Shown here piece by piece: positions 26,010-61,386 of a DNA stretch of 64,000 nt. Numbering within the stretch: position 1 is the first letter of the stretch; every line of letters begins with the position of its first letter. The notes beneath the pieces were generated by a model. The model searched no databases. It was not told where the DNA came from and worked only from the letters and a program-made list of their open reading frames with translations. A program made the position numbers and the translations under genes. Origin of the DNA: Adineta vaga (lineage: Eukaryota > Animalia > Rotifera); contig CP075496.1 in the NCBI GenBank assembly GCA_021613535.1, positions 8,742,001 through 8,806,000 of the forward strand, read 5' to 3'.

Positions 26010-26736
26010 GCATGACCGTATTGGAATACTATCTTCACCTGCATAAAATGTAATTAGGTGAACGATAATTGATACCTAATCTGCGTTCGTTTAACTTAAC
26101 AAGAAAACATACTGCAATAATATATGAAAACGTTTTAATATATTCGATGATATGCTGCATATTATGATCATCTTATTCAATACCACGAATATCAGAAAAA
26201 ACGGGTGCATTTATAATACGAATTGTTTTTCTGGCTGTATCATTTATCTGAAATTCATAGAATTTACAACGTTGGGGTGATTGGATGATTGAAATCTCCA
26301 TCTTTCGGCTCATCTACTCAGCCAAAATACATAGCATGCTCTTCGAAAGTAAAGCCAGTTGTGATAATAAATGAAATAGCCATAATTACCAGTGGTTGAC
26401 TTGTTTGTGCATTATCGAGTGTATGAAATCGAAGATAGTTGGCTAATATATTAATAAAAGTAGATTTCCCAAAACACTTGTTTCACCAATTAAAAGAACT
26501 ATCATGGTTTTTCCTTCTGATACTGGTTCCAAATTTGATGTTTCACTAGTAAGAACTCTATCCGAAACTGACAGAACTGAAGTATGTAGTTCAGTTACAT
26601 AGAAGCAGTTAAGGATAAAATGGGATCATTCATGTATACAGTCATCATAGTGCGATTTAAGTTGTCCGTTTGACTCAATAGCTTTGCGAGTGATTTCGAT
26701 CGGAGATGATCGGTTTGAATTATTTTCTATTTCCAT
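26010..26736 (-). pseudogene. Degenerate, internally deleted copy of the MACPF-GTPase gene
   Basis: Start resembles the paralogs (ITRKAIESNGQLKSHYDDC); then LLIGET../GKSTFINILANYLRFHTLDNAQ nearly identical in DNA to 27860-27945; stops and frameshifts; 3' boundary approximate. Confidence 0.8.
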
Positions 26737-27158: not shown

Positions 27159-29673
27159 CTATAGGCGATAAGTGGTGAGATTATTGCAAATATAATGAAT
27201 GAGACGATTGGCTTCTTTTCGTGAGATTGTCCAACTCATATCGTATTCTTTCTTCTGATCAGCACTAAATGTAATATTGTTTTTTCGAGCAACCAAATAT
27301 CGAAATGATTCGCTGTCAAAACAGAACGTATTCTCTTTTTTGAATAATGTGTTACCCATTGATAACGATGCAAGCATTTTTTTCAATAATGGGCCTGTAT
27401 TTCCAGGCGTATAGAATGTTGAACGAGAATTAGTAAAGCAAAAGCTAATATTATTACTAATGTTGGGTCCTAGTACAGTGAATAATTGAGTGAGGCACGA
27501 TCGAAAAAAGATATTTAGTCGTGTTTCATTTGGTTTGAGAAGAACACAAACAGCATTTACGTGTGAAAGCGTTTTAGCATAATTGAATATTTCTTTCATG
27601 TTACGATCATCTTGTTCAATACCACGCGTATCACCGAAACCGGGTGTATCTATAATACGAATTTTTTTCCCAACTGTGCCATTAATCTGATATTCAAATT
27701 CATAGGATTTGCAACGTTGGGTGACTGATTGACCTGGATGATTGAAATCTTCATTCTTTGAATCATTCACATCACCAAACTTGACAGTACGTTCCACAAA
27801 AGTATCACCAACAGTAATAATAAATGAAACAGGAATAAGTACGAGTGGTTGATTTGATTGTGCATTATCCAGTGTATGAAATCGAAGATAGTTGGCAAAT
27901 GCATTGATAAAACTAGATTTTCCAACACCTGTTTCGCCAATTAAAAGAATCGTAATAGTATCATGATCTTTCGATTGTATAGATGATGAACGAATCGACT
28001 GTAGTACTGCCGTGGGCGAAGTTCTGTGTGATGCTTTGTTAGATAGTTCTTCATGATCCGTTAGTTTTACAGAGCTTTGACATAGCGAAGTATTAGATTC
28101 GGATTTTCTTAGTGGCGATATAAATGTGCCTGTTGTCTCGAACGACGCAAAAGTTCGTGTCTCTTGGATGACAGTTTGTTTTTTTGTGTCTACCGGTTTG
28201 AGATTTAGTATCTCTCTGGAGGATATAGATGTTGTCTGTTGCCCACTTTTGTTTTCATTTTGTTCCTGGTTCAAGGGTAAAACGATTATTTCACGAAGAT
28301 CATATGAAGAATATGAAAAATCTGCATAAATCAAACGTTTATTGGGATTATTTCTATATTCTTCCACTAGATTTTCACGGTGTTTTTTGAATTGTTTTGC
28401 GTACTTTTTGTTTAAAGCATCTGTAGAACAGATAATCCGATCAGTGTTACCAGTCTGTATTAATTTTTGTTGCATCGTTCGTTCTTTATCAGCAGAATCA
28501 ATGCCACGCTCACATACATCGACATATACAAATTTTAATTGATCTAATTCGGTTATAAAATTTACTTTGCTTTTTAAACCGTCTAGCTGGCGAATTAAAT
28601 CGGTACAGAGATTTTTCACACTAATTTGTTCATTATTCTTCAATTCTTCTTCTAGCTTAGACATCGATATACGACCACTTCGAACATTAACCAATAGTTT
28701 ATATAACTGTTGGATCATGCTAGTATATTTAACCTTCACATTCGAGACTTGTTTTCGAAAGTTATCAATATAGTTTCGAAGGTATCCACAAGATAATTTT
28801 GGTATTTCTTCCTTTAAAGAAGTTTCCATCTTTGCTATATTTGCTTTTATATAGAATAGATGTTCTTCGATTTTTCGATTGAGCTCAGACAGTGGCACAG
28901 TAAATTTGGTACCTGTTTCCCTGTAGGAAGGGTATAACCAGTTAATGGGTCGCAGAATATAAGATACTGGACGATCGACCGTACTATTTTTATTTTGTTG
29001 TATATATCGGCAAATTTCTTGAAGTGACGTGCAACTTTGTATATCTGATATAGTAGAATAAACCATTCGTATTACGAATGTTTCCAATCAGATTTTCTTC
29101 ATCTGAGTTCCATATAAAATCATCGTCTTCATCCCGCAAGAAAGTTTTAATTCGTTCAAGCATCTCATCGATTTTTCTTCTTAATTCCTCATCGAACGGC
29201 AACTGGAGAATGACAGCAACAACTGTTCCCCACGAAACAGAAGTAACAATATGAGTGGCGTTCGTTTCAGATATTTCTGACTGAATGAATTCTTGGGCAT
29301 CTTCTCTTGTGTCAGGAAGTTTTTCTATTCGATGAACGTACGTATAGTGTAATATTCGAGTGTATTCATTGATTGCATCTGAATAATCAACCATCGTCCC
29401 GATATTATTCTTTTGTTCTACAGACAAGAGCATGGTTAACCGTAAGTTCTCTTCGATTTCAATCAGTTTTAGAAAGTTGTTTCGACTAGTCTGTTTGAAT
29501 TCATTCAGAATTCTACAATGTTGCACGTCGCGTACATGACTAATGATTGGGTTTTTCTTTACATTCAGTTCACCAAGTAATTCATCTCGACATGCATTAT
29601 ACAATGAACCCAAACGACCAGACGAATCAATAGCTGTACGATTGATGAGAACATTGACTGATTGTTTTTCCAT
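27159..29673 (-). CDS. Stonustoxin-like MACPF/CDC scaffold fused to a septin/AIG1-like GTPase, copy A (1-nt frameshift near 29065)
   Basis: GRLGSLYNACRD, ATHIVTSVSWG, YILRPI, LVNVRSG; GTPase motifs GETGVGKS, SVTQ, IIDTPG, FTNSR. The two ORFs are colinear with intact 32747..35707. Confidence 0.8.
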
Positions 29674-30541: not shown

Positions 30542-32497
30542 ATGAGTTATTCTAAACGTTATAGATCGATATCAAGTCGATTTAGACAATCACTACCTGA
30601 TATAAATATTTTGATCTTAGGTGAAACAGGATGCGGAAAATCAACGTTTATTAATGCATTTGCTAATTATCTTATTTATAATACGCTAGAGGATGCAGTG
30701 AGAGGTGAAATGAAGGTGCTTATACCTTCCTCATTTAGTGTAACTGATCCAGACTCATGGGATCAAGAGTCAACAATGATTTGTGTCGGAGATCAATCGG
30801 ATAATGAAAAATGTGACGAAATTGGTCAATCAAGTACACAACTCTGTCGAAGTTATACTTTTCAATTGGAAAATCGTATACTACGTTTAATTGATACGCC
30901 TGGTATTGGTGATGTAAGAGGTATAGAACAAGATGCGATAAACTGTGATCATGTGCTTAACTATTTGAATCGATATGAACATTTGAATGGAATTTGCATG
31001 TTATTCAAACCAAATATCGAACGATTAACAGTTAGTTTTCGTTTTTGTTTCAATCAATTATTATCACAATTGAATCTAAGTGCCATTGATAATCTTATGT
31101 TTGTATTTACGAATGGAAGAGCAGTATTTTATCAACTAGGTAGCACTGCAGATCTAGTAAAAACACTGATTAAAGAATTAAAAGAAACACGAAACGTGAC
31201 TGTACCATTCGATCGTCGAATAAACGCATTCGTTTTCGATAATGAAGCGTTTCGATTTCTAGCTATGAAGAAAAAAGGTGCCTCAATTTCAGAAGATGTA
31301 ACAAGTAGTTATAATGCAAGTTGGGAAAAGTCTGTAAAAGAAGTTATTCGACTCCTTGAACGAATTAGTCAATGTGGACAACATGCTGTACGAGATACAT
31401 TATCAATAAATGCTGCTCGACAACTTATTCATCAACTTACACGTCCAATAGGTGAAATTGCACGACTTATTCAAGAAAATATTGATCTAGCTGAAAAAGC
31501 TAAACGAAATATTATGAGAAAATCATTGTCTTTTATACCAAAACAGATATCGCAAAAAGCAGGAAAGATTCGACATCTTGATCATCCAAGAACAGTTTGT
31601 ACAGCGGAAAATAAATGTACAGAAATTATTACTGTCGATGGTGAAAAAAAAATGAATTATAAATCTTATTGTCATCCCCATTGTTATTTACATGATGTTG
31701 AAATAAATTGTATTGGCCATTCAATTTTAAGATACTGTGCTGCTATCAGTAGAAGAACAGGTTAGTTTTAAATCGATGAAACAGTATGCCCTCATCCGAT
31801 ATTTTATTTAAGCATCTATATTGGAGTATAGATTTTTCAGATTGATATAAAAATTGAGTCAGAAAATCTTACGATCATATGCTTTGTTTTAGGTATATGT
31901 AAACAATGTGGATGTAAATGGGACAAACATATGCATATTACATATGAATATGACACATATAACATGAACTTCAATATCGATAATTCTAGTTCACGTTCAG
32001 CATTAGCAGATATCGATCGACGACTTAGTGCCTTGCGACAAGAACAAGAAGCTATTCTTAAGGTTTGTAGTCAATTTGCACTATATGTACGACGAAATTG
32101 TGTGATAGCTTATAATAATGATATCACTGAATATATACGTTATTTTATTCGTGAAGAAGAACAAAAACGAAGTGCTGGTGCCGACAATGAACGTGTTATT
32201 CTAGGATTGAAGAAGATGATCGAAGATTTTGAGAAAGAAAAGAAAATACTTGACGACGCTTCTTCTAACGCTGCTTCATATTCTATTCAAGATTTCTCTG
32301 GACCCGAAGATATATTTGCTTTCGCAGCTAAACTTTATAAATTACCTATTAATGGTCCAAGTATTCGAGATCAAGTTGAACAAGTAAAAGAACAACAATT
32401 GAAGGTTCTTCAACAAAAAGAATATCCTATGGATATTCCAAATTTTACTAATACTCCAGTAATGAAATGCATAAATGAAATGAACAGTTCTCAGTAG
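30542..32497 (+). CDS. Stand-alone septin/AIG1-like GTPase with Cys/His-rich module and coiled coil, copy 1
   Basis: GETGCGKS, SSTQ, LIDTPG, FTNGR; intron 31761-31892; CHPHCYL..CKQCGCKWDKHMHITYE. Confidence 0.88.
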
Positions 32498-32746
32498 AGA
32501 AACATTCAATGCTTCTTATTAAAAATCTAACACAAAATAAATCATTATCATCGAATTGTTTGATAATTTATTTTTGCTATATTCTAGATCAGAGGTACTT
32601 CTAAAATCTCTTGTTATCCATAATCCTAACTATTATATCATCTTTTGTAATATCTTTATTATTTCTATAATGTCTACCCTAATCATAAAAAAATAGTGAT
32701 ACTTATAATCAAATATTTTTTAATAAACATATGATGTTTTTCTTTC

Positions 32747-35707
32747 TCAATATATTCCATTCGATGTTCGTTGATCTTCAATAACATAGGCGGATACTAA
32801 TGGATATGTATACATATATCGAATTCGTTCTTGAATCTCCGATAATCTAAAACGTTTTCTATCACTTTTAAATGTTTTCATACATTCTTCATAATTAAAT
32901 GATAATGCTTTTAAACTTTCAACGAGTTGCATATTCATATAGCTTCGACTATATTCATCACAAACATTCTTTTCTTCTGTCATTAATCGAAATAGACCAG
33001 TTAAAAATGGATTTCCATTCGAATAAACTGTACAATATGCTAAAAAATAACCAAATTCCGCACTTGTATCATATAAAAATGAAAGATGTTTAATCATTTC
33101 GTTTTGTTTTTTTGCCAATGGACAATTTGAAACATCATAATTTTGTAAGAAGTCCAGTGGAGTTGGTTGATATGGAAGATGTTGATCTTCATAATTATCT
33201 TTTTCTCTCTCATCCAATGGTATATCTTCTGAATGTAATTGAATTGATACTTTCATTGAATTGATTTTTCGAATGATAATATTTCGAAGAATATGTCGAA
33301 TTGTTTCTAATAACGGATGAATCAATTGAGCAATTTCAATTTGTGCACGTTTTATCGCTTCCCATTCATTAGGTACAGGAATAGCAGTGAGATTTTTTCG
33401 AATATAACGAATCAATCGATTCGCTTCCAGGACAGATTTGGTCCAACTTGTTTCATATTCTTCACGATTTTGATCACTAAATGTAATATGATTTTGTAGA
33501 GCAATTAAGTATCGTAAGAATTCATTATCAAAACAGAATGTATTCTTCTTTTTCAATGGAATTTTACGAATTGGTAATGATGGAAGTAGATCTTTTAATA
33601 ACACGCCAGCATTTCCTGATGTATACGAACTTGAACGAGTATGAGTAAAGCAAAAGATAAGATTTCGACGAATACTGGATCCAAAATATTCATACAATCT
33701 CTCCAAACATATCGGTAGAAAACTATTCAATTCGGTTTGATTTGATTTCAAAAGTATACATATCGCATTGAGATGAGATATTTTTTTGATATATTCGAAA
33801 ATGTGTTCCATAATTAGATGATCTTGATCCACACCACGTATATCACCAAAACCAGGTGTATCAATAATACGTAATTTACTTCTATCATTATGATTTGGAT
33901 GAAAAACATAGGATTTACATTGTTGTGTTACAGATTGTCCAGAATTATCGAAATTTTCATTTTTCGAATCGTTTTCATCATCGTATTTTACTAAACGTTC
34001 TTCAAAATTATCACCAACAGAAATAAAAAATGAAACAGGTATAGGCACAAGTGGTTTTTCCATATGAATCCTTTCGAATGTATTAAATGTTACATAATTA
34101 ACAAAAGAATTAATAAACATAGATTTGCCAACTCCTATTTCTCCGAGTAGAAGAATATTGATCGACTCATTTGTTGGTACTGATGCATTCATTGGTATCG
34201 ATGCAGCTGTTGTAGAAACCGAAGACATAGAACTATTGATATCGGCATTCAGAAGTTGATCTGATTGTTTTGGTATTTTTTTCATATAATATTTACTAAG
34301 TGGTATGACAGCCATATTTGGTAATTCAAAAGAAGAATAAGAAAAATCTGCATAAGTTAAACGTAATTTTGAATTTCGTTCCAATTCTTCAACTAAAGCA
34401 TGACGAAGTTCTTTTAATAATTCAGGATTTGCTTTATTCAATTGATCATTCGAACATAGAACTCGATCACTATTTTGATCGATAATTAATTTACTTTTTA
34501 ATGATTCTTCGTTATCATTTTCATTAACATGTCGTTCAATAACATTACAATATTGAATTTCTTGATGACCTAAATCACTTATCAAATGTCCTTTCGCATT
34601 TAAATCATTAACATCTTGTGTTAAACTTTTAATATGATTTTTCATTCGTATCTGTTCTTCATTTTGAAGTGTATCTTTAAGTGACTGATAAAGTATGGAA
34701 CCTGAACGCATTTCAGTAACTAATGACGCAAGCTCATCAATAGTACGATTGCATTCAGTTTTTAAATCGTACCATTGTTTATAAGCATTTGATAATCGAT
34801 CTTTAAAATGACCACAGAGAAGACTTGACATATCTTCATCAAAATAATTTTCTAAGGTTTTTAATGAACGTGATAAATCGAATAAATATTCTTCGAATTC
34901 ACCTTCATTACTTATATCATGAACTATATAAGTATAATGTGTTGATGGTAATGATTGAGCAAAAATAGATTGTAAAGGACAAAGAGTATATGCTATTTGT
35001 TGATGCTCACTATGATTGAGTTTACGTCGAGTAATATTATGAAATATATCATGTAAAGTTGAATTTTCATTTAGAACAGGTATATTTGAATAAACTTTTG
35101 TATGAACAAGTTTCGTATATGAAAAAATATCGTCTCGTGTTAATTTAAAATGATCACAATCACCATTTAAATAAGCTCGATATTTGTCTAATGTAGTATC
35201 AATGATTGTTATTAGATTTTCATCCGTTGGTAATTGTAGAAAGATAACAATATCAATACCCCAACTAACACCAGTAATAAAATGTGTAGCATTCTTACCG
35301 GGATTCATTGTTTCAAGCCAAGTTTGAATTAATAGAAAATCATTTGGTAATTCCTCTTCTTGATGTATGTAAGTATAATGAATGACACGAGTATATTGAT
35401 TGATGATATAGGGATAATTCATTGCAGATGTAATACCATGTTTTGATATGATATTCAATGCTAAACTCAAGCGTAAATGTTCGTTAATACCGATTATTTC
35501 TAATGGATTTCGTTGTTGATTGTGATATCCTTTTTCAATAATACATTTTGTCTTTTGAGGAAAATGAATGGGAGGCTTTTCAAAAGATATATCTAATGGT
35601 TGAAGTACACGATCTTGACATGTATCATACAATGAACCAAGACGTCCAAAAGGATCGACAGCTGTACGTTTAATAGACACGGATAATAGATCAGGAATTT
35701 GTGCCAT
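32747..35707 (-). CDS. Stonustoxin-like MACPF/CDC scaffold fused to a septin/AIG1-like GTPase, copy B (intact, 986 aa)
   Basis: GRLGSLYDTCQD, ATHFITGVSWG, YTLCPL, LVTEMRSG; GEIGVGKS, SVTQ, IIDTPG, FTHTR; helical C-terminus without the Cys module. Confidence 0.85.
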   Translation of the reverse strand: MAQIPDLLSVSIKRTAVDPFGRLGSLYDTCQDRVLQPLDISFEKPPIHFPQKTKCIIEKGYHNQQRNPLEIIGINEHLRLSLALNIISKHGITSAMNYPYIINQYTRVIHYTYIHQEEELPNDFLLIQTWLETMNPGKNATHFITGVSWGIDIVIFLQLPTDENLITIIDTTLDKYRAYLNGDCDHFKLTRDDIFSYTKLVHTKVYSNIPVLNENSTLHDIFHNITRRKLNHSEHQQIAYTLCPLQSIFAQSLPSTHYTYIVHDISNEGEFEEYLFDLSRSLKTLENYFDEDMSSLLCGHFKDRLSNAYKQWYDLKTECNRTIDELASLVTEMRSGSILYQSLKDTLQNEEQIRMKNHIKSLTQDVNDLNAKGHLISDLGHQEIQYCNVIERHVNENDNEESLKSKLIIDQNSDRVLCSNDQLNKANPELLKELRHALVEELERNSKLRLTYADFSYSSFELPNMAVIPLSKYYMKKIPKQSDQLLNADINSSMSSVSTTAASIPMNASVPTNESINILLLGEIGVGKSMFINSFVNYVTFNTFERIHMEKPLVPIPVSFFISVGDNFEERLVKYDDENDSKNENFDNSGQSVTQQCKSYVFHPNHNDRSKLRIIDTPGFGDIRGVDQDHLIMEHIFEYIKKISHLNAICILLKSNQTELNSFLPICLERLYEYFGSSIRRNLIFCFTHTRSSSYTSGNAGVLLKDLLPSLPIRKIPLKKKNTFCFDNEFLRYLIALQNHITFSDQNREEYETSWTKSVLEANRLIRYIRKNLTAIPVPNEWEAIKRAQIEIAQLIHPLLETIRHILRNIIIRKINSMKVSIQLHSEDIPLDEREKDNYEDQHLPYQPTPLDFLQNYDVSNCPLAKKQNEMIKHLSFLYDTSAEFGYFLAYCTVYSNGNPFLTGLFRLMTEEKNVCDEYSRSYMNMQLVESLKALSFNYEECMKTFKSDRKRFRLSEIQERIRYMYTYPLVSAYVIEDQRTSNGIY

Positions 35708-37217: not shown

Positions 37218-40200
37218 TTATGAAGAAAATAAACGTGTTTTTAATTTCTGCACATATTTTCGTCCATTTGATATTAGTGTTTGTCGAGATTTTTGTGCTT
37301 GAAGAATATTATTCTCGGTTGTACTTATTAATGAATCATCTGGAGAAAGTATTGCCTTGAAAAGATTTAATGCATCTTGATAATATGCCATTGCCATATT
37401 TTGATTATTTAAATTTGTATAACAATAAGCAATCAAATCATAGGTTATTCCAATATCTCGATGTTGTTTTGGTAAACATTGAGAACGAAGATCTAAACAT
37501 TCTAAAGCACATTCAAGTGCTCGATCAAAATCAGTGATATCACAGTAAACAATAGCTAAACCTTCCAATGTTGAAGAGATAGTAAGGAAATTATCTGATG
37601 CAAATTTTCTTTTTAAGATAAGTGATTGTTGAAGAACTTCTAAAGCTTGATCATTATTAGATTGCGAACGATGAATAAAACCTATCAAAGTCAGATTATC
37701 AGCTTCATCTAAATCACCATGTGGAAATTGTTTTCGACGAATAATCAGAACTCGTGTTAAATATAAAAGTGCTTCATCAAATTTTTCATATTCATAATAT
37801 GTTTTAGCAATATTTTCACAACTAATAGCAATATCAGGATGTAATGGAGGTTGAAACACTTCTTGAAGTCTTAACGCTTCATGATGATATTCTAAAGCTG
37901 CAGAACGATTTCCTTTCATTGATATTAAAATACCGATCATATTTAAACATTGAGCAGTATCCGCACTACCATATTGATACCAATTTAGTTTAATTATCCT
38001 CGCTTTTTCAAAGCATTCCATCGCCAATTCATTCTTTTTGTTTGCTAAATGTACTAAACCCAAATTGTAGAGACTAAATGAAAGTTCTATATGATCCGAT
38101 GGATAAAATTTTTCTTTCATATCTAACGATTTTAAACATAAAAGTTCAGCTTCAGCATGATTAGCTTTAAGAGAATAGACCAAACCAAGATAGGAAAAAC
38201 TAGAAGCAATAGAAATATGTCCTAATGGATAATGTTTATCTTGAATTTGTAATGCTTTTTTATGATATTGTAAAGCATTATTATAGTCTCGTAAATGTCG
38301 ATAGATACAACCAATATAATGACAATCCTCAACAAGATTAAGATCATCTAGAGAATAACATTCTTCTCTCAAATTTAAAGATTGTTGAAAAAATGTTAAA
38401 GCATCTGGATAATTTCCTTGTAAATAATGAACAATACCAAGAGAATGAAATGTTTCAGCAATATCAGGATGATTTTCAGATAGATTATTTTGACGAATAC
38501 GTAATGTATTCGAACATAAACGAAGTGCTTCTTCGAATTCACCAATATAACATAAAATAATACCATAATTATTCATACTATCAGTAAGATCAATATGATC
38601 AATTGGATAATGTTTACTTTGAATTTCGAATACGCGTCGAAAACATCTAGCTGCTTTATCATATCGACATTCTTCATAGAGAATATAACCAATACGATTA
38701 AGACTTTCAGCAATACGCATATCATCTGGAGAAAGATATTTTTCTCGAATATTCAATGCTCGTCGATGATAATCTAAAGCTAAACGTGAGTTACCTTTTT
38801 TCAAAAATCTATCACCAAACTGTCGTGCAATTTCCGCAATATCAATATGTCCCAAAAGATAAACTGTTTCTACTAATCGCATTGTTTTTTGATAATAATC
38901 TAAAGCATCATCATGCTTTTCTTCAATATAAAGTATACAACTTATCATATAAAGATTCTTTATCATACTTGAATAATCTGTTGGTGCACATTGTTCTCTC
39001 ATTTGTAATGCACGATGAAAATATTTTAATGATTGTGTATAATTAGTTTGATTTAAATAAATTTCACCGATACTAGTCAGACTATGAACAATGGAAATAT
39101 TATCTTGCGGATAATGTTTTTTTTGTATTTGTAATGCTTGTTGGTAGAATCGTAAAGCTTGTTGAAAATGTTCTTGTTTAAAAAGAATTTCTGCGATATT
39201 GATTAAATTCATTGCTAAACGAATACTTTGTCCACTTTGAAAGATTTCACGTAGAGTTAATGCTTGCTGATAATAATCTAATGCACGAGAATAATTCTCT
39301 TGATACGAAGATATTGTTCCTAAAATTTTTAAACTATTCATTATATTTGTATACGTTAATGGATGATATTTTTCTCTCATTTCTAATGATCGTTGATGAT
39401 AATGAAAGGCTTCTTGAAAATTTTCAAGATGACAATAAATATGACCAATTATACTTAGATTATTCACAATTGTTATTTCATTTATTGGTAAATAAGTTTC
39501 ACGTAATTTTAAAGCTCGTTGATAATGTTCGAGTGATTCAGTATATTGTCCTCTATCAAGTAAAACTAGACCAAGATTGGTAAGATAAGTTATTAAATTT
39601 ATATGATTGGATGAGGAATATTTTTCTTGAATTTGTACAGCTTTTTGAAAATAATCTAAAGCTTCATTATATTGAATTTGTCGATGATAAACAACACCAA
39701 TACCATGATAACTTGCTGCATTTTCAATATGACCTTTTGGATGAATATCTTGAATTATTTTCAATGCATTTTTATAATATTCTATAGCTTGATCATAGTA
39801 TTCTTGATCAGTAAAGATCAATGCAATATTATTTAAACAGCGCGCAACATCTACATGACCCAATGGATAAACTTCTTTTCGAATTTTTAGAACTCTTTCA
39901 TAATAATCTTTTGCTTGATCATATTTTGCTTGTCGATGATAGAGAATACCAATATTATTAAAACAAACAGCAATTTCTAATTGATCATTTGAATATAATC
40001 TTTCTCGAATTTCTAAAGCTTTTTGATAAAAATTCAAAGCTATATCATATTTCCGTTGATCACAAAGTACTAAACCAATATTCGTAAAACTTTGTGCAAC
40101 ATCCATATGACCATTAGGATAGAATTTTTCTCGAATATTCAATGCTTCTTCATAGGAATTAATTGCTTCTGTATATTTCATTTGTTGATGAAGTATAGTA

Positions 40201-43200
40201 CCAATTCCATTTAAATTTGAAGCGATATCAAGATGATCAGATGAATATAAGAGTTTAGCTAAATTTAATGCTCGATATCGATAATCTAACGATTGATCAT
40301 ACTGATTTTGATCGTAAAATACAAGCGCAATATTATTCAAAGTTTGTATCATTGTTATATGACCAGTTGGATAAATATCTTCACGAATTTGAAAAGCACG
40401 ATTATAATAAATTAAAGCTTGATCATAGTCCATTTGTCGATAATATGCAACACCAAGATTATTCAATGTACTGGCTATTTCAGAATGTGTTGATGGTAAA
40501 AGTTCTTCACGAATTCGAAGTGATTTTTTATAAATTTCAATTGCTAATTCATGTTTCTTTTGATGAAAATAAATTATACCAATATTACCAAGATTGATTA
40601 AAAGATTTTTATATCCTAATGGATAATGTCGTTCTTGCATATCAAATGCTCGATAATAATAAATGAGAGCTTCGTCATATTTTAATGTTCGATAGAGAAG
40701 AATACCAATATTCATAATTACTTCAGCAATATCTGTATGTCCATATGGATGGAAACGTTCTCGCATTGTTAATGTTCTTTGATAGATTTCTATCGCTTCA
40801 TTACTATTACCTTTATCCATTAGAACACGGCCAAGATTTCCAAGACTTTGTGCAACATCAATATGTCCTTGAGGATACATTTGCTCACGAATTTCCAATG
40901 CTTGTTGATGATATTTCAAAGCTTCATCGTAATTCAATTGTCGATAATAAACAACACCGATTCCATTTACAGCATGTGCAATATCTATATGATTTGAAGA
41001 ATAATTTTCTTCAATCATTTGTAATGCTCGTCGATGATATTCTAGAGCTTCATCATATTTTTCTTGATCACAAAGAACAAAACCAATATTATTTAAACAT
41101 TGAGCAATATCAACATGACCCGAAAGATAGAAATCTTCTCTCATACGATATGCTTGTTGATAATACACAATTGCTTCATCATATTTTAATTGTCGATAGA
41201 GGGTCAAACCAATATTATTTAAACTAGCAGAAATTGTCTCTAATTTAATGGAGTTAATTCTTTTCGAATATTTAATGCTTGATGATGATATTTGAGTGCT
41301 TCAGAATATTTCATTTGATTGTATAAGATCAAAGCAGTGTTATAAAGATTAAGTGCAATATTGATATGACCTTTTGGATAAAGTTTTTCTAACATTTGTC
41401 GAGAATTTTTATAGATTTCTATTGCTTGAGTATAATTTCCTTGTCGATGAAGAACAATACCAATATTCGTCATAGTTGATGCCACTAGAATATCACCTGT
41501 TGGATAAAGTTTTTCATTGATTTGAAGAGCTTTTGTAAATAGTTCTAATGCGTCATCATAATTACTTAGATCTGTTTGTAAAAGAGCAATATTATTAAAA
41601 CTTTGTGCAAGTTCACTATGATTTGAAGGACATATTTCTTCTTTTATTTTCAATGCTTGTCGATAATAATCAATTGCTTCCTTGAATTTCTTTTGTCGAT
41701 GATAAACTGTTCCGATACCATCGAGACTATTCGCGATAAAAATCTGATGATGACGATTAGATAATCCATATTCTTTTCGAATATCTAATGCATGTTGATG
41801 ATATTCAAGAGATTGATCATATTTTCCTAATTCAGTATAAATACTTCCAAGAAAAGTCAAACTAATTGCAATATCAAGACGTTCGGATGGATAATATTTT
41901 TCACGAAGTGCAAATGCTCGCTGATAATAAACAAGTGCTTCTTGATTTCGTTTTAATTTACTTAACATTAAAGCAATATCATCCAAATTACGAATTAGAT
42001 CTTTATCTTCCGGACGATAATGTTCTTCTCGAATTTTCAATGCTTGATTAAAAAAATTCAAAGCTTCTTCATATTTCTTCTGTCGATAAACAAGATTTCC
42101 AATACTACTTAATACATTTGATAAATCTTGTGCTGGTGGTATCGGATATGTATTCATGATCAGATGATAAGCTCGATCATAATATTCTCTTGCTACATTG
42201 AATTCTTGTTTTTCATAATGATTTCGACCAATATTATATTGACTAATATAACAGTTCAAACTATCATTTCCATATGAAATATATTCAAGATATTTTTTCG
42301 ATTGCTCATTATTACCAAATTGATCTAAAAGTCTTCCTATCGTTTTTCCGATTGATTCATTATCATGACGTATATGTTCAATATATTTATCAATCATCGC
42401 TTGTCTTCCATTTGATAAACTAATTTTCATTACACAAATATCTCCATCATAACTAACATCATTCAATCGAAATATTGTTCCTAAATCAAACATAAATTGA
42501 TTTTCTTCAGCATTCTTACTGTATTTCGATATATCTGCTAAGATAATACTTCCATCATTATCTTCCATATTGCATTCAATTTCCATGAGAGCAGGTGTAT
42601 GATCTTTTCGTTCAATACGTTTCGTAATATAAGCAAGTGCAAATGAACGTATTCGATTAGCAAACATATATGAATTAATAGAAAAATATTGACCAATTGC
42701 TTTTTTAATTCCATTTATTTCATTTGTTAATAAACATGATGCACGAAAGAGAGTTAAAGATTGATTAGATTGTTGAGATTCTCGAGCAAGATTTTCTGAA
42801 AGATCTCGAAGATAAAATCGAAGATTATACAATTCATCGATATCTAATGTCCATAATGCTTTATTGATTAATTTCGAGATGAATGATCGATGTATATACC
42901 AACGTATTGCTTCATTTGATTGGTAAGATTTTTCAAAATCATCTATTAATTTTTGTTGATGAGAATTATTACGATAGTATTGACGAAGATGTTGAATGAA
43001 ATGTGATTTTTCTTGATTAATTTGTGGAAAATATTTAATGATTTCATTTAAGAAATGAAATGATGAAAATCCTTCCAATATCGATTGAGATGGATTCGGA
43101 AATATTTGAATTTTTAATTGTTTACTATTCAATTGTATTTGTTTTTCTATATCAACACATAAGACATCAAAATTATCATAAATATTAATAATTTTTGGAT

Positions 43201-43543
43201 AATCATTTACTAACGAATGAACTTGAATTTCATCGAAATTAAATAAAAAAATCGATTCAATTTGAATAAGTTTATGAATACGTAATAACATTTGAGCTGT
43301 ATCAATTCCCGAGATGATTAAATAAATCACTTCTTTTTCACTTGTTTCAATAAATGATATACATGATTCAAGTTCCGAATAAATAACAACATGATCATTG
43401 ATAAGTTGTAATTGTTTTTTTGCTTGTTTAAATCGACTAAAAATACTAATCTTAGGATTTAACCAAATAATTGTACTGATTTCTTTGTTATCATTATGAT
43501 TGGTTTTTGAAATGTATGGAAATGTTTTTTCAATTGTAACCAT
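37218..43543 (-). CDS. Giant ART-like/TPR protein (about 2100 aa, about 40 TPRs) with degenerate catalytic motifs; 1-nt frameshift near 41240
   Basis: N-domain IIWLN..YLIISG, AIRWY, ART-fold remnants LFRA and FMFDLGTIFRL; the 42-aa TPR register continues across the ORF junction (..ELTPLN/ETISASLNNIG). Confidence 0.85.
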
Positions 43544-43870
43544 ACTCGTACGCTAGTAATTTACTTTTTGGTACGATATGTCAAGAGAGAAAAAAAACGT
43601 GTTGATGACTATTTATGAATGTTGGTTATGATATTAGAGGAAAGGAAGTAGTTTTTGCTATACTTATTAAGATGAGAAAAATATTGTTTTGACATGATTT
43701 TGTACCTTTTCGTTTTCGTACGTTGGAAAGAAACCACACGTGTTAACTTTGCTATCATCTATCATATGTCAACAAGGTGAATATATCATGAATATAGAAT
43801 ACTGTACAAGTCAGGAAGAAAAACATACATATCTATGCGAATTTTATTAGATTTAAATTAGTTCAATAAT

Positions 43871-45713
43871 CTATAAAACACTTTTGGTGATTGTTTCTGG
43901 TGAAATAGTATCTCGTAATTTGGACATTAACTTGGATTTTGATGCTTTATCTGACAGATCGATATACGTTTCTGTTTTTGTACAGCTCTGTCTTCGGTTA
44001 CTTTTAGTAGTTCGACTTCTTGACGAATTTGTTGTCCGTTAATTGGTAAACGATATAAAGTACCAAGTAAAACAAATGTCTTTTCAACATTAGACACATC
44101 GTTCGACTCCCTAGAATTGTTTTCATGAGTTATTGTTTTTATAAAAGCATTCATATTCTCTTCATATGTCAACATAATTTTTTGAAGGCCTTCAATTATC
44201 TGATCATTTTCAGCACCTTGACTCTTTTTCATTTCTTCTTCTTGAATAAATAGGCGAAGATAACGAACAAAATCATCGTCCATTGGATGTATTGCATGGA
44301 TATAAAGAAATTGTGTTAACTTCTTATAAGTATCTTCAATATGTGCTTGTTCTTTTTTTAAATTCCTAATATGTTGATCAATAGTTTCTTCGTCTTCGAT
44401 CGATTTCGATTCTATACGGGTTTTCTGATTGTAAGTCAGATGCATATGATTATTGGCAGGACAATCACATTTGTCACATATACCTGAACAATTGCAGACG
44501 ATTAGTTATCATTAAAAATAACAATGAGTCTCTCACCTGTTTTTTGATCGATCTTTTCACATTGAGCTATTCTTAATTCATTAATTGTTTCCTGTGCAAT
44601 AGTTTTTAAATAACATTTCTTATGGCAAATCTGCTTATATGTGTCTTTATTCTCATCGTTGTCCGGAACGAATTGTAAACATTTTTTACTTACACAGACT
44701 AATCGTGGAGATTGACAGAGCTGAATGTGCAGGACTTTCTGTGTAAATTGTGAATGCTGTTGACTTCTTTTTGTTGATAAACGATGTTTATATTCTTTGG
44801 CTAGTTGAAGATTTTCTTGAATAAGTCTTAATATCCCTGCAATTGGACGTGGAAGTTTTCGAATCACTTGTTCAATTTCACTCAATGATAATGTATTGGC
44901 AACAGCATGAAGTGGAAGTTTGAATATATAACTAAAAAGACGTTCATATTCTCTTGAAGATTGTTCCCAACTTCTTTCGTACGATTGAATTTGTTCATGA
45001 TCAATTTTAATATGATTCTTTTGCATTGCTATATAAGAAAGAGGTTCATTATCTAATAGAAATGAATTTTCTTTATTAAATGGTATATCAATGTTAAAGT
45101 TTTCACGAATATCTTTGAGAATAGCTTGAAGAAGATTTTTCGAACTACCCATTCTATAGAATGTTGATCGAGCATTAGTAAAAATAAATATAAGATTTTC
45201 ATGTACAGTTACACTTGAAAATTGCAGAAGTTGTTTTAGATAGAATCGAAATGTAATAGTTAAACGTTCTTCATTTGGTTTAAGGAAAATACATATACCA
45301 TTTAAATGTTCAAAATGTGATATATAAGAAAATATTTCAAATAAACGTTTCTTATCTTCATCTAAACCTTTCACATCACCCATACCGGGTGTATCAATCA
45401 ATCGTATATTTCGATTACCAACAGGAAACATATAACTTCGACATTGTCGAGTATTGGATTCATTATTTTCCGTCTCACCAAGTTGAATAACTTTTTCTTC
45501 AAATGTATCAGGATCAGAAATCGTGAATGAAGTTGGTATAATGACTTTAAAATCATCTTCGAGTGATTCATTGAGTGTATTGTTGTTCAAATAATTAGCA
45601 AAAGAATTAATAAACATACTTTTTCCAATTCCACTTTGTCCTAATAAGAGAATATTTATTTCTTGTTCTCGTGGACAGTTTCGATTAGCATTGGAATTAT
45701 TTGATTGACTCAT
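43871..45713 (-). CDS. Stand-alone septin/AIG1-like GTPase with Cys/His-rich module, copy 2 (probable frameshift near 43972)
   Basis: GQSGIGKS, LIDTPG, FTNAR; intron 44484-44536 at the same codon position as in copy 1; CHKKCYL..CDKCDC..HMHLTY; LYRLPING. Confidence 0.85.
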
Positions 45714-46109
45714 TTTGTTCACTAAAATGAAAAGTAAAAGATGACTAGTACGAGAAAATAAATGCGATTGTTTTTTCCAACTTACATGTTGTCTCCGTCT
45801 TGTTAAAAACCAAAATAACAGAAAGGAAGAATTACTCGACTACTGTTGCAAAAGTTAAAAAGAAAAATATATTTGGTCATAGACTTTTTCTTTCCTACAC
45901 AGAACGAAAGGAAGAAAAAAATCTGCTTTCGTAACAGACTCTATGCGATAAGACATTTATGATAACTAAAATCAAAAAATGATATACAAAATCGGTGAAT
46001 TAATCATGTTGACAAATGTCATTCATATCTATTACGTAATTACTTTTATTTTTATAGAGCAGATACAATGGAAGTAATGTGTCATTCAAACGAAGTATCG
46101 ACTAAAAAC

Positions 46110-47618
46110 ATGTCGTCAACATTTGAAACTTTATCAGATGAAATTCTAATGATTGTCTTTCAATACATGGGTGATATGTGCACAATTTTACGAACATTTT
46201 ATGGTTTAAATCAACATCTAAATGATATTCTACTGAAGAAACTACCACACACAATACAATACCTATTCTTTGAATTATCTTCCTCCATTGAAATTAATTC
46301 AAAACTGCATCTGTACCTTCAATTCTTAATTAGTAATTACATCAAAGAACAATATCTAGAAATAGACAATCAAGTACGATCACTTCGTCGTACATTTCAA
46401 ATAACACGTGAGAAACTCTCCGAGATCGAAATGCTTAACATAGATAATGAATTACAAGCGGAATTTTTCAATTTACAAACTACGGTTCCAACTATTCAAT
46501 CAATAAAACATATTCAATCACTAGTTTTTACTAGTGCAGCATGTATTCAATGCGATAATCACGAACCGAATCAATTCAATTTTACTAAAGCTCTCAATCG
46601 TTTCTTACTTTGCCGTTTGAATGATACAAATCCTGCTAATGATTTATTAATCCAACCATTGACTCATATGTTCCAAGCACTGATTCTTTCAAATATCGAT
46701 GTTCTATTAGATCGGGATTATACAGAAATCGAAGAGAGTTCAACCGCTTGGCATTTTCTTTTCTATTCAATTTATCAATTACAATATTGGTACTATACTC
46801 CACCGGATATTTCTATTAATATGAAATGTTATCAAGCAATAACACAACTATTACTTTTTGCTATCCAATGCCATAAACAAAATAGAAATGTTAATCAAAA
46901 TTGGGCTCAAGAAAGTCTCTTTAATATATTGAAAATGATTGGTGAGAATCAAATGATCAAACAAAATGAAACATTGATTCAAGCGGTTCAAAGAGAAATT
47001 TTGAACATCATCATTGAAGAAAATGTTTTAACATCAATACTATCTTGGCAAGATGAACAGAACAATACATTTCAATCGATTTTTTCAAAATTAATTCAAC
47101 AGAATCAAGTGGATATCATACTTCAACTTTATCGTGAGCTTCCTACGGTACGTTCTTATTTTAATCAATCAAAACATCTGATAAGAAATGTAAATATCCT
47201 TACTGGAAGTTCGACAGGTCGACAAATATTTAAATTATTTTTTGATGAAGAACCATTGCAACCTTGGTTGGTTAATCGAGAATTATTTTTCTTACTTTTA
47301 TCGAAAAAGGAACGTCAATTCTTAGAAAAGATATTAAAATTATCTCCAGATCTCATACATACCAAGGATGAAAATGGAAATAATCCATTAGTTTATATCT
47401 GTTTGAAAGTTCGTGGTTGTCGAGAGCGAATAATTGAGTATTTAATTCGAATTGGATGTGATACACAACAACGCAATCATAATGGTGAAAATTTCTTTGA
47501 TGCAATACAAATGAAAAGCAATCAAAATCTTTTGAAAGATGTCTTACAAAACAATCAAAATCAGTTATTGGAAATTAATTCATCATTAGTTCCCTTGTTA
47601 CTTGCTACTAAAGTTTGA
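46110..47618 (+). CDS. N-terminal F-box-like plus C-terminal ankyrin-repeat protein
   Basis: STFETLSDEILMIVFQYM (F-box-like); KDENGNNPLVYIC..IIEYLIRIGCD..RNHNGEN (ankyrin); alternative start at 46068. Confidence 0.7.
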   Translation: MSSTFETLSDEILMIVFQYMGDMCTILRTFYGLNQHLNDILLKKLPHTIQYLFFELSSSIEINSKLHLYLQFLISNYIKEQYLEIDNQVRSLRRTFQITREKLSEIEMLNIDNELQAEFFNLQTTVPTIQSIKHIQSLVFTSAACIQCDNHEPNQFNFTKALNRFLLCRLNDTNPANDLLIQPLTHMFQALILSNIDVLLDRDYTEIEESSTAWHFLFYSIYQLQYWYYTPPDISINMKCYQAITQLLLFAIQCHKQNRNVNQNWAQESLFNILKMIGENQMIKQNETLIQAVQREILNIIIEENVLTSILSWQDEQNNTFQSIFSKLIQQNQVDIILQLYRELPTVRSYFNQSKHLIRNVNILTGSSTGRQIFKLFFDEEPLQPWLVNRELFFLLLSKKERQFLEKILKLSPDLIHTKDENGNNPLVYICLKVRGCRERIIEYLIRIGCDTQQRNHNGENFFDAIQMKSNQNLLKDVLQNNQNQLLEINSSLVPLLLATKV

Positions 47619-55225: not shown

Positions 55226-56108
55226 TTACTGTTGTTATATAGATAGACATACATGTGTTTTATATTTAATAGAAAAGATTATATAAATGATTATTTGAAT
55301 GTACTAACATTGTTTCAAAGAGAATTTCTTTCCAGTAATCGAGAGATGAACGAAACATTACTATTTACTATCTGTAGATTATTAATAGAAATATAATATA
55401 GTTGTTTTTGTGTAGTTTTAGAAAGTTTTTTAAAGATGTAAATTATAAAACGTAGTTTATATGTTACATGATATACTTGAAAGATGTATGTATTTTGAGA
55501 CAAAAGGTTTCGACTTTCTTTTACATGAATGAATGAATGAATCGAATGAGAAACCTAAATTGAATAAAAATACCAGGATATATTTGAGACAAATAGCAGA
55601 AGACATTGTGTTAAATGTCATTTTCATTTCAAAAGAAGATTGAAATAAACCATTTATGTAATTAGTTTTTTTCTCGTATAAGTGCCTCAATCGTTGTATG
55701 TTTCCTGTTTTTCCATAGCTGTGCCAAGTACTTTATCATCAAGAAAAAAAAGTGAACTTATATCTAGAACAATCAGGTACTCTTAAATAATTTACACTAG
55801 ATGTAGAACATTTATTTAGTACCTGACTCTAATTAACTTAGTTACCTATGTTGAATAAGTCTAAAATAACTATACATGATGAAAATAGATAAGTAAGACG
55901 ATTATGTACCCTGAAAAAGAAATTAATTTTCATATACCTCTCATCGCATTACACGGAAGAAAATTCTCTTTATAAAATGATTATCTCACATATGAACATA
56001 CTATTTTTACCGATGATAATAATATAGATAATCATAATGTACTTTTTTTCAAATACTAAGACATATATTGAAATTTCTTCTGATGATTTAAGATAAAATT
56101 AAGTTACG

Positions 56109-57188
56109 ATGTTACATGATGGATATGCACATTTGTTATCTCAGAATGCCGATGATTTTTCTTTCTACACACAACTTCTGAATTTTATCTGCAGTATTCT
56201 GTTCATTCTTGGTATTATTGGAAATATGTTAGGTCTACTTATTTTCTCTTCATCTCGACGATCATGGCAGATATCATCCGTTTATACCTGTCTTGCAACA
56301 TGCAGTTCAATTACTAATCTCCTTTGTCTCATACGATATTCATCGATTCTTTATTCTGCAACTCGTTATCCAATTCATCATCTTGTTCAAAACAATTGGT
56401 GGGCATGTAAAATCTATGAATTCTCATTTTCATTTCGAGTCATCTCAGCTTGGATTACATTATTTTGGATGTTTGAACGATTGATGTGTGTATCAAGCAA
56501 ACTACGTTATATCTTTAATCGATGGAATTCATCGAACGTTAAATTCATTATTCCATTGATGATAATCACACTGATTTTATGTGGCGTTGTTGGTTTACCT
56601 ATTTACATGTTTCAACCACAAATATTCATGTATGTTGATCGATCGTTCAAATTTTTTTTCGATTTGTTTCCATTTTTTGTATGTTCTAGTGGAAAGATGA
56701 TGAATGGAACGATGATGAAAACAAAAAGATATTGTGGAATTTCACCAAATGCATCTGTTCGATGGCAAAACTATTTTGAACAAGTTGGTTTCGGTCAAAA
56801 TCATTATACAGTTCGTTGTCTCTTTTCAGAATTAATTCCAGCTGGTACCATCATTTTAATTAATACCTATATTATTTATTATCTTCGAACATATCGTCGA
56901 TTTCATCGAACATTAGAATATAATTCAAGTCGAAATCTATCACGTACAACAACATCGTGGATGAATATTGTGTTGATTCTTCATTCATCCTTATTTTTAT
57001 CATCATTATTGTCTCATATTGTTGGACATTTCATGAATTTAGAAGCACATGAAACATGGTGGGTATCCTTAGCAGTGGTGATTAGTTGTTCATTAAATTT
57101 CTACCTTTATTGCCTGTCTGGAAAAGCATTTCGAAGTGAAATTCGACGATTTGTTCAACGATTTGAAATGCAACTATTTTATCATTAA
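56109..57188 (+). CDS. Orphan class A GPCR, paralog of 53024; 2 exons
   Basis: GIIGN, WACK..MFERL, NFYLYCLSGKAFR; in-frame 60-nt intron 56630-56689 at the same position as in the paralog. Confidence 0.9.
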   Translation: MLHDGYAHLLSQNADDFSFYTQLLNFICSILFILGIIGNMLGLLIFSSSRRSWQISSVYTCLATCSSITNLLCLIRYSSILYSATRYPIHHLVQNNWWACKIYEFSFSFRVISAWITLFWMFERLMCVSSKLRYIFNRWNSSNVKFIIPLMIITLILCGVVGLPIYMFQPQIFMYVDRSFKFFFDLFPFFVCSSGKMMNGTMMKTKRYCGISPNASVRWQNYFEQVGFGQNHYTVRCLFSELIPAGTIILINTYIIYYLRTYRRFHRTLEYNSSRNLSRTTTSWMNIVLILHSSLFLSSLLSHIVGHFMNLEAHETWWVSLAVVISCSLNFYLYCLSGKAFRSEIRRFVQRFEMQLFYH

Positions 57189-60178: not shown

Positions 60179-61386
60179 TGTCATCATCAAACACGATATT
60201 GTTACCACTGTCAATATAGTTATAATATCAATTTCTATTTCAGTACAACCGACTTGTTCTACGGATGAATAATTCATTTATGTACAATAAATAGTTGCAT
60301 ATATTACGATTTTAATTAGAAAATTTGTTTGAAACGATTTGTAAAATACAATTAAAACATTTCTGGATAGATGGTTGTTATTTTATGTTACTATATTCAC
60401 ACAATTTTATTTAATTATACCGTATAATCCGTTTTCTCCTGCAATTAATAGAGTATTTTATTAATTAGTTTGATTTTAAGGACAAAGAATTTTCGATGAA
60501 ATAATGTGCAATACAATCTTCATATCTATTTATGACATAAAAACAGACAGAAAATGACAGATTTTGTTTTATTTTCTTCTTATTTAACTATTCGTCAATG
60601 AGAATTTATCGTCCAAAAAATACATGATATAGGTAAAACGGCAAGCCGAAAAACAAGTTTTTATATTCGACAGTTCAGAGGGTAAGAACGAAATATTATT
60701 ATTTATATTGATAATGCAAATACTAGATAAGTGCAGACGATTTCTATCGGAAGAGAAAATGCATTTGACTCTTTTTTTTTCGTTTGCAAGTAATCCTAAC
60801 TTGTGTATGAAAACTTCACTACCGATCGTAATTTTCGCTTATCATTAGTGTTCTTCCGAGTTTTTTCATATGAAATACGAATTATAATTATCCAGAAATA
60901 TTTATTCGAAATCATGAGAAAATAAATGTCATTCTCTTCATTGATACGGAAGAACTGTATTACTTATTTGGTAAGATACAAAAGTCCAGTTTCTTTCATG
61001 AAATTATTCATTAGTTTTTTATTCTACCATTAAAAAAAGAATTTTTTTATCAAATTATAACAAAAATCGTCTTGAATGATATGAAAAAAGTAAACGAATG
61101 TCTATGTCATGTTTAATTATTTTATTCTGATATCTTTGTATTACTTTTAGACACAAAAAACTAAGAAATACTGTACTTATTATACAGAAAAATATTTGTT
61201 TTCCTCTGTTTTTCAGGTGATGATGATACGCTTGTCGTATCAAGACTTATGACTTTTGATTACGAATCGATGAATATCATCGTTGACAGATAGATAAGTG
61301 AAAGCAAATAATGTATAAAGGTATATGTACCTTTCGTGAAAGCGTTATAATAAATTACTCAGAATCCACAAGGAGGTGGACGCAAA

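Follow-up and report, generated by a model that had tools for sequence, protein, structure and literature searches.

In a 64,000-nucleotide window of the genome of the bdelloid rotifer Adineta vaga (contig CP075496.1, positions 8,742,001 to 8,806,000), we analysed a gene, here called P0001, whose product joins a stonustoxin-like N-terminal half to a GTPase of the AIG1/GIMAP type. By fold and by homology the protein belongs, as a genuine though divergent member, to the stonustoxin-like branch of the MACPF/CDC (cholesterol-dependent cytolysin) proteins. Its second transmembrane hairpin region (TMH2), in contrast, has lost the alternating apolar face of the fish toxin, a loss that runs through the whole family. 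The explanation we prefer, and to which we would give about an even chance of being right, is that P0001 is a non-lytic or weakly membrane-active intracellular immune GTPase, whose MACPF part would oligomerise and dock without opening a classic pore. It is chiefly as venom lysins that stonustoxin-like proteins are known, and GTPase-fused relatives of theirs are recorded in the databases from rotifers, Daphnia and chordates. The family offers a direct test of a MACPF fold in either of two roles, a scaffold under GTPase control or a membrane breaker with one hairpin, and in bdelloids it would be a candidate immune family hidden behind the Pfam-based annotation 'G domain-containing protein'.

P0001 is a single open reading frame (ORF) of 986 codons in one exon, without internal stops, in DNA of about 30% G+C (window positions 32747-35707, reverse strand). 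Its closest named relatives are all bdelloid (Adineta ricciae 70%, A. steineri 60%, Rotaria 47-51%). Contigs from seven sequencing runs cover the genes of the window and leave most of the intergenic DNA uncovered, and five of these seven runs splice the GT..AG intron of a neighbouring gene; an eighth run covers all 30 bins of the window, retains this intron and looks DNA-like. None of the runs is catalogued as RNA, and we judged their status by the spliced intron, the gene-only cover and a poly(T) contig end, which in one run lies just past the P0001 stop, before position 32638. RNA-like contigs span the P0001 frame with no GT..AG joint seen inside it. Because of the gene-only cover, the spliced neighbouring intron and the poly(T) end, found across three studies, we regard P0001 as transcribed, and taken together the data indicate an intact, intronless, transcribed gene. 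A pseudogene was rejected because of the open frame and the RNA-like cover, and a fusion created by the assembly because of the recurrence of the same domain order in nearly all long family members (see below).

The stonustoxin-like N-terminal half

A preliminary description, made from the letters of this DNA, had recognised five stonustoxin-like motifs in the N-terminal half. They are present in the claimed order (GRLGSLYD at residues 21-28, IGINEHLRLSL at 72-82, ATHFITGVSWG at 140-150, YTLCPL at 240-245 and LVTEMRSG at 329-336), and when family profiles are compared with stonustoxin (PDB 4WVM) using HMMER, each of them falls on the stonustoxin motif that had been named for it. Searched alone, P0001 does not match stonustoxin in the PDB with phmmer, where a septin P-loop and chance HKT matches are the only results, and in Pfam it finds GTPase families without MACPF_SNTX. 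This Pfam family is weakly matched by 10 of 19 close relatives (best E 1.5e-4), and by 17 of 43 and 10 of 44 members in wider sets. A family profile of 19 sequences places stonustoxin beta and alpha as the top two PDB entries (E 1.5e-9 and 2.5e-7). Profiles confined to the N-terminal half give 2e-9 and 7.4e-8 with 14 sequences (next match E 0.033), and 1.3e-12 and 5.1e-10 with 43 sequences (next match E 0.088), so that the stonustoxin family comes first in every profile search. The agreement exceeds what chance would give. A language-model search with residues 1-480 led to Atlas clusters annotated MACPF_SNTX, Stonustoxin_helical and Thioredoxin_11 at scores of 0.95-0.96.

The AlphaFold model of residues 1-480 (predicted local distance difference test, pLDDT, 89.8; predicted template-modelling score, pTM, 0.84) has four long antiparallel strands (52-59, 106-119, 142-158 and 202-207) separated by helical clusters, that is, the bent four-stranded MACPF sheet with its two helical clusters. 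Beyond it, a helical bundle (265-381) and an alpha/beta domain (384-468) were modelled. Foldseek aligned this model with 4wvm_B (E 1.1e-13 over 508 columns) and 4wvm_A (E 4.2e-12 over 490) at template-modelling scores of about 0.5 and a root-mean-square deviation of 9, followed by CDCs, GNIP1Aa, C8, perforin and MPEG1. The proposed MACPF-FAT-thioredoxin module is thus recovered over about 500 structurally aligned columns, and the profile match extends through the FAT part. With the sheet and both clusters modelled and stonustoxin leading the profile searches, the proposal has withstood the refutation that the preliminary description had set for it. In stonustoxin the corresponding domains are given as MACPF 1-265, FAT 266-385, thioredoxin 386-517 and PRYSPRY 518-703 (PMC8704401). 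The thioredoxin-like stretch of P0001, which the preliminary description had also pointed out, owes its label to the Foldseek alignment and the Atlas family lead, with no match in Pfam; in 8 of the 10 closest relatives that were compared, no other N-terminal region is as well conserved.

P0001 shares with stonustoxin alpha and beta (4WVM; PF24674, PF21109, PF18078) the MACPF-FAT-thioredoxin order, the fold, the motif register and the absence of a signal peptide. It differs in its low structural identity (about 11%), in scoring below the Pfam cut-offs of the stonustoxin families, in having a GTPase and a helical tail in place of PRYSPRY and in the loss of apolar hairpin faces, above all in TMH2. 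Within the family the hinge glycine G150 is invariant (131 of 131 MACPF domains), and at least 128 of 131 carry I, V, F or L right after it, where stonustoxin has A. In 10 close relatives the identity of the MACPF core is 49-66% and that of the GTPase 48-74%; given this similar degree of conservation, the MACPF fold is under selection and kept for some purpose.

The protein also lacks a signal peptide, as had been stated: there is no hydrophobic N-terminal stretch, the best 10-mer reaching 1.06 on the Kyte-Doolittle (KD) scale. Stonustoxin, which is secreted, and its Glycera homologues are likewise described without one (PMC4202326), and for this reason the missing signal peptide says little about location. 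The GTPase is the better argument, and because of it a cytosolic location appears likely. A role as secreted venom was rejected, as the GTPase favours the cytosol and the signal peptide is uninformative either way.

GTPase domain and helical tail

The claim that PRYSPRY is absent and a P-loop GTPase present holds as well, Pfam, Foldseek and the structure model placing an AIG1-type domain and a helical tail where stonustoxin has PRYSPRY. To call PRYSPRY 'replaced', however, presumes an order of events, and the GTPase-bearing form could predate the PRYSPRY form. Residues 513-774 exceed the Pfam AIG1 cut-off (35 against 27 bits), and with the C-terminal half Foldseek returned GIMAP7, 5, 2 and 4 at ranks 3-14, then septins and Toc34. 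A profile of the four GTPase halves in the window aligned with GIMAP7 around G2-G3 only, as a weak match (E 0.16). P0001 resembles the GIMAP/IAN (AIG1) proteins, and after them septins and Toc34, in its AIG1 score, in its best structural matches and in a G domain followed by helices, and it differs from GIMAPs in sequence (12-18% identity), in a long insert between G1 and G2, in its G4 (THTR), in the fusion behind a MACPF module and in lacking a transmembrane anchor (best 19-mer KD 1.43). The linker between the two halves is disordered (pLDDT below 50 at 474-512).

The nucleotide-binding motifs G1 (GEIGVGKS, with G527-K528-S529), G2 (T594) and G3 (D616-T-P-G, DTPG) are intact. In G4 (T688-H-T-R691) the guanine-specifying Asp is absent, and R stands at its position, in motif register, in 90 of the 91 family G domains that we counted; the G4 of Toc34 is deviant, too. 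Two further positions set P0001 apart: M530, where 85 of 91 family members have T, and E659, where 60 of 91 have R and 15 have K. The first is shared with P0002, the second with P0002 and P0003. Column 659 may correspond to the GIMAP arginine finger. In P0001, hydrolysis may be slow or dependent on a partner.

Such substitutions raise the idea of a regulatory or decoy subunit, in which a catalytically weakened P0001 would pair with intact neighbours, the GTPase-only genes or the tandem paralogue, and tune or inhibit them, and which is compatible with the immune GTPase that we prefer. P0001 belongs to an 11-member subclade with few cysteines, three neighbours in the window, transcribed or intact, keep R at column 659, and more strongly eroded P-loops occur in P0013-P0015. 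However, K528, S529, T594 and DTPG are all intact in P0001, and column 659 varies in 31 of 91 domains, its equivalence to the arginine finger being tentative, so that we consider this role quite improbable. In P0013-P0015 themselves the GK of the P-loop is replaced and the G1-G2 insert is absent, while the MACPF part and the tail are kept, which makes them candidate pseudo-GTPases.

The helical tail of about 200 residues behind the GTPase (777-975) had been overlooked in the preliminary description. A Cys-rich insert lies within the tail of more distant paralogues and is absent from P0001 and its 10 closest relatives. These 11 proteins have 2-5 Cys in their last 260 residues and group together with a Shimodaira-Hasegawa-like approximate likelihood-ratio support (SH-aLRT) of 97 in a quick tree, computed from 70 of 93 GTPase domains (proteins of at least 880 residues) and leaving 31 of 66 inner branches open. 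For the insert we relied on the alignment and on Cys counts, as a regular expression for the Cys motif found 37 of 69 tails and missed clear clusters, for example in Daphnia.

Pore hairpins and proposed mode of action

In known pores of the MACPF/CDC type, the two TMH clusters have to unwind and become amphipathic beta-hairpins (PMC7593815, PMC4318580). Read by eye in the profile alignments, both stonustoxin chains show four unbroken alternating apolar faces with the tips in the middle of each TMH; this reading of the two chains served as the positive control for our hairpin scoring, the script itself being applied to the family, i.e. to 131 MACPF domains with near-complete matches among 167 proteins. 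In the stonustoxin register, the four faces are free of polar, charged and proline residues in 14/130, 34/130, 21/130 and 1/111 domains, the last being the second strand of TMH2, and in no family sequence are all four clean. The faces of P0001 read I-E-L-L-L, I-K-G-T-A, T-I-T-L and Y-N-D-D-F, with N181, D183 and D185 on the second strand of TMH2.

The preliminary description had called P0001 a pore-former, had noted that both TMH regions look polar and had proposed to look for amphipathic alternation. For TMH2 the polar character stands: hydrophobic moments across the family are of the helix type (helix 2.17 against 1.68 in shuffled sequences, beta 1.52 against 1.69), and clean hairpins at three tolerances (4, 9 and 17 of 129) do not stand out from the shuffled expectation (5.4, 10.2 and 15.2). 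For TMH1 it stands in part only, and alternation does emerge there. The first strand keeps its i,i+2 apolar alternation (beta moment 2.06 against 1.27), and the second is broken in the stonustoxin register. A centred hairpin is rarer than chance (4/130 against 12.7 expected), whereas an off-centre hairpin is found in 42/130 against 22.0 at a tolerance of 4 residues and in 94/130 against 33.2 at a tolerance of 7. No tested sequence has both hairpins clean and centred within 2 residues. A lytic pore, for which both regions should be able to form amphipathic beta-hairpins, is therefore not what the family sequences suggest, P0001 passing at the loosest tolerance; the alternating apolar TMH2 face that both stonustoxin chains possess is lost across the family, and the designation as a pore-former was not sustained. 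By the sequence features that we scored, the absence of PRYSPRY and a TMH2 that is not of the amphipathic beta type, P0001 is to be placed outside the lytic fish cytolysins.

These data bear directly on the intracellular pore-former originally envisaged, in which the GTPase would keep the pore closed until nucleotide binding or hydrolysis freed it, and the two TMHs would refold as a beta-barrel. The MACPF fold is complete, both helical clusters are near stonustoxin length, G1, G2 and G3 are intact, and P0001 itself yields clean hairpins for both TMHs when a tip displacement of up to 7 residues is allowed; stonustoxin-like genes of fish have also been discussed as defence pore-formers (PMC12107551). 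Nevertheless, the TMH2 signal rises above shuffled sequences at no tolerance, its second strand is clean in a single domain, no sequence combines two clean centred hairpins, and the two modules are separated by a long, variable linker, with no sign of coupling between them. We consider such a pore unlikely.

The shifted TMH1 hairpin, with its tip at 86-92 in P0001, would suit another form of membrane damage, in which arcs of the protein insert TMH1 only, and thin or leak the membrane of a pathogen vacuole or organelle, with TMH2 remaining a helix and targeting left to the GTPase. The excess of off-centre hairpins, the beta moment of the first strand and the conserved amphipathic helix in TMH2 point in this direction. 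However, the apolar residues of TMH1 could simply form the buried core of a soluble cluster (helix 76-83 in the model), and in 76/130 domains a K, P or R at position 89 interrupts the centred register. We know of no MACPF protein shown to work through one inserted hairpin, and we hold this reading to be distinctly unlikely for P0001. A bolder version is a large bdelloid family of cytosolic GTPase-driven perforin-fold machines in which nucleotide-switched, mixed-paralogue arcs or rings insert TMH1 only and breach pathogen-containing or damaged membranes; it would, if true, be a one-hairpin mechanism under GTPase control that is new to the literature, and it likewise seems to us unlikely.

The immune GTPase that we favour would reside in the cytosol. 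Its MACPF parts would assemble side by side into rings or arcs, either of P0001 itself or mixed with its paralogues, much as stonustoxin alpha pairs with beta; what is left of the TMH1 apolar face would allow shallow membrane contact; and nucleotide-dependent pairing of the GTPases, as in GIMAP, septin and dynamin-like GTPases, would toggle assembly. The MACPF domain has two jobs, ring assembly and insertion (PMC7593815), and since the core is kept and TMH2 is eroded, ring assembly is the likelier job to have survived, which is what suggests a scaffold. Astrotactins and BRINPs also have the MACPF fold without proven lysis, belonging to other MACPF branches and carrying no GTPase. They are apparently non-lytic, have non-immune roles and are secreted or membrane-bound. 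Developmental roles have been described for them (PMC7593815). A defence role for P0001 would fit the immunity-linked and repeatedly expanded AIG1 families (PMC12373286) and the discussion of stonustoxin-like genes as defence pore-formers in non-venomous fish (PMC12107551).

Several points weigh against this explanation. The off-centre TMH1 signal is real; 12 proteins, P0001 included, have both hairpins clean at a tolerance of 7; the TMH2 of P0001 itself has a higher beta than helix moment (1.98 against 1.75); and the TMH lengths (medians 45 and 43) are near those of stonustoxin. The double-clean hairpins of P0001 may well be due to chance, because its five closest relatives (P0002-P0006) are not clean in both at this tolerance. 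In addition, the 131 MACPF sequences are related, which makes the counts non-independent, and the hairpin evidence is drawn from sequence. The proposed activity of P0001 is a prediction from sequence and model, and its immune role an analogy with other families.

Spread of the fusion and the surrounding locus

With the N-terminal profile, 672 clusters (50% identity) were matched at E<=1e-3. Domain tallies refer to 150 listed clusters, the other 522 lying outside the tally: 93 carry MACPF and GTPase, 52 (for the most part short or partial) MACPF alone, 4 the GTPase alone and 1 neither. Among the matches listed that reach at least 700 residues, 77 of 82 carry both domains. Of 20 clusters that were looked up, the five with a species name are all bdelloid, and word-based homologue searches gave 22, 22 and 24 proteins; two of the named ones are from Daphnia and the others are bdelloid. 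The fusion has thus been retained and has multiplied, to as many as hundreds of clusters at 50% identity with the named ones checked all bdelloid, while the hairpins erode.

The preliminary description had pointed to similar architectures elsewhere, and these do exist. The Daphnia carinata protein P0209 has a stonustoxin-like N-terminus (E 8.8e-15) and an AIG1 domain further on, and its UniRef relative, from D. galeata, bears the name 'AIG1-type G domain-containing protein'. Atlas clusters pair stonustoxin domains with AIG1, MMR_HSR1 or septin. One of 131 members (score 0.95) has MMR_HSR1 in 87%, MACPF_SNTX in 64% and DUF8206 in 61%; chordate clusters at scores below 0.9, which we treat as leads, include one of 272 members with Stonustoxin_helical in 97%, fn3 in 95%, Thioredoxin_11 in 93% and an AIG1 name. 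Because the Daphnia protein and the Atlas clusters carry it, the architecture is already present in database annotations. Daphnia P0209 and P0208 and the Atlas SNTX/AIG1 clusters are like P0001 in the stonustoxin-like N-terminus, the AIG1/septin-like GTPase and a related tail. The chordate clusters carry fn3, in contrast to P0001, which has no fn3 match in Pfam, and the bdelloid members differ from the Daphnia and chordate fusions in forming an expanded clade of their own and in a G4 without Asp, the P0001 subclade also in lacking the Cys-rich insert. A literature search whose scope did not include the stonustoxin structure paper, which may discuss such fusions, brought up no publication that deals with a fusion of stonustoxin and GTPase or with stonustoxin-like genes of rotifers, and no functional study of the Daphnia or chordate relatives. 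This agrees with the earlier view that the function is less described than the fusion: the fusion itself is known in databases and apparently unstudied, and the new part is its bdelloid expansion with eroded hairpins.

The TMH2 region of Daphnia P0209 is highly charged and aligns to stonustoxin with insertions, a hint that GTPase fusion and hairpin erosion may go together in more than one lineage. Three family members (P0079, P0111, P0024) have an N-terminal ADP-ribosylglycohydrolase (E 5e-71, 2e-45) or ADP-ribosyltransferase (E 3e-9) before the MACPF domain, which could be real effector fusions or joins made by gene calling. Nine others (P0110, P0112, P0113, P0120, P0133, P0139, P0152, P0154, P0158), some of them on long contigs, consist of MACPF-FAT-thioredoxin only, with about 480-495 residues, and are either stand-alone forms or first exons.

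P0001 is surrounded by relatives (Table 1). The gene next to it is convergent, the two stops lying about 250 bp apart, and is the one whose intron is spliced in the RNA-like runs. The frame break of the tandem paralogue is absent from the contigs of seven of the eight runs, including the DNA-like one, the eighth having no cover there; as the contigs of these seven read through, the break probably reflects an error of the assembly or a rare allele. Together, the locus looks like a birth-and-death cluster, and the family expansion, the tandem copies and the relic are the reason why defence genes would fit.

Table 1. Domains of P0001 and related genes in the window (res., residues of the protein)
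Feature	Position in window	Strand	Evidence or remark
P0001: stonustoxin-type MACPF, FAT-like bundle, thioredoxin-like domain, linker, AIG1/GIMAP-like GTPase, helical tail	32747..35707	-	ORF, RNA-like cover
MACPF/CDC domain, stonustoxin type, res. 11-247	34967..35677	-	profiles, model, Foldseek
TMH1 helical cluster, res. 60-104	35396..35530	-	model, hairpin scoring
TMH2 helical cluster, res. 159-201	35105..35233	-	model, hairpin scoring
FAT-like helical bundle, res. 264-381	34565..34918	-	profiles, model, Foldseek
Thioredoxin-like alpha/beta domain without CxxC, res. 382-472	34292..34564	-	model, Foldseek, Atlas lead
Ser-rich linker, res. 473-512, low confidence, variable in length and sequence	34172..34291	-	model, alignment
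AIG1/GIMAP/septin-like P-loop GTPase, res. 513-774	33386..34171	-	Pfam, Foldseek, family alignment
Helical C-terminal domain, res. 777-975	32783..33379	-	model, alignment
Tandem paralogue, same domains without tail, two frames	27159..29673	-	break near 29065
GTPase-only paralogue with Cys-rich tail, two exons	30542..32497	+	132-nt GT..AG intron near 31758-31891
Second GTPase-only paralogue with Cys-rich tail, two ORFs	43927..45839	-	Pfam, family search
Decayed GTPase relic, three short frames, no RNA-like cover	26059..26473	-	family search, contigs

The window also contains large genes with tetratricopeptide repeats (TPR) at 37218-43552 (reverse strand) and 3106-4770 (forward strand). The latter has a weak ADP-ribosyltransferase match (E 8e-4) ahead of its repeats; the N-terminal half of 41240-43552 is similar to it by eye, with no such match listed. 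Three further long ORFs on the forward strand (45999-47618, 56103-57188 and 61354-63360) have no Pfam match at E 0.01.

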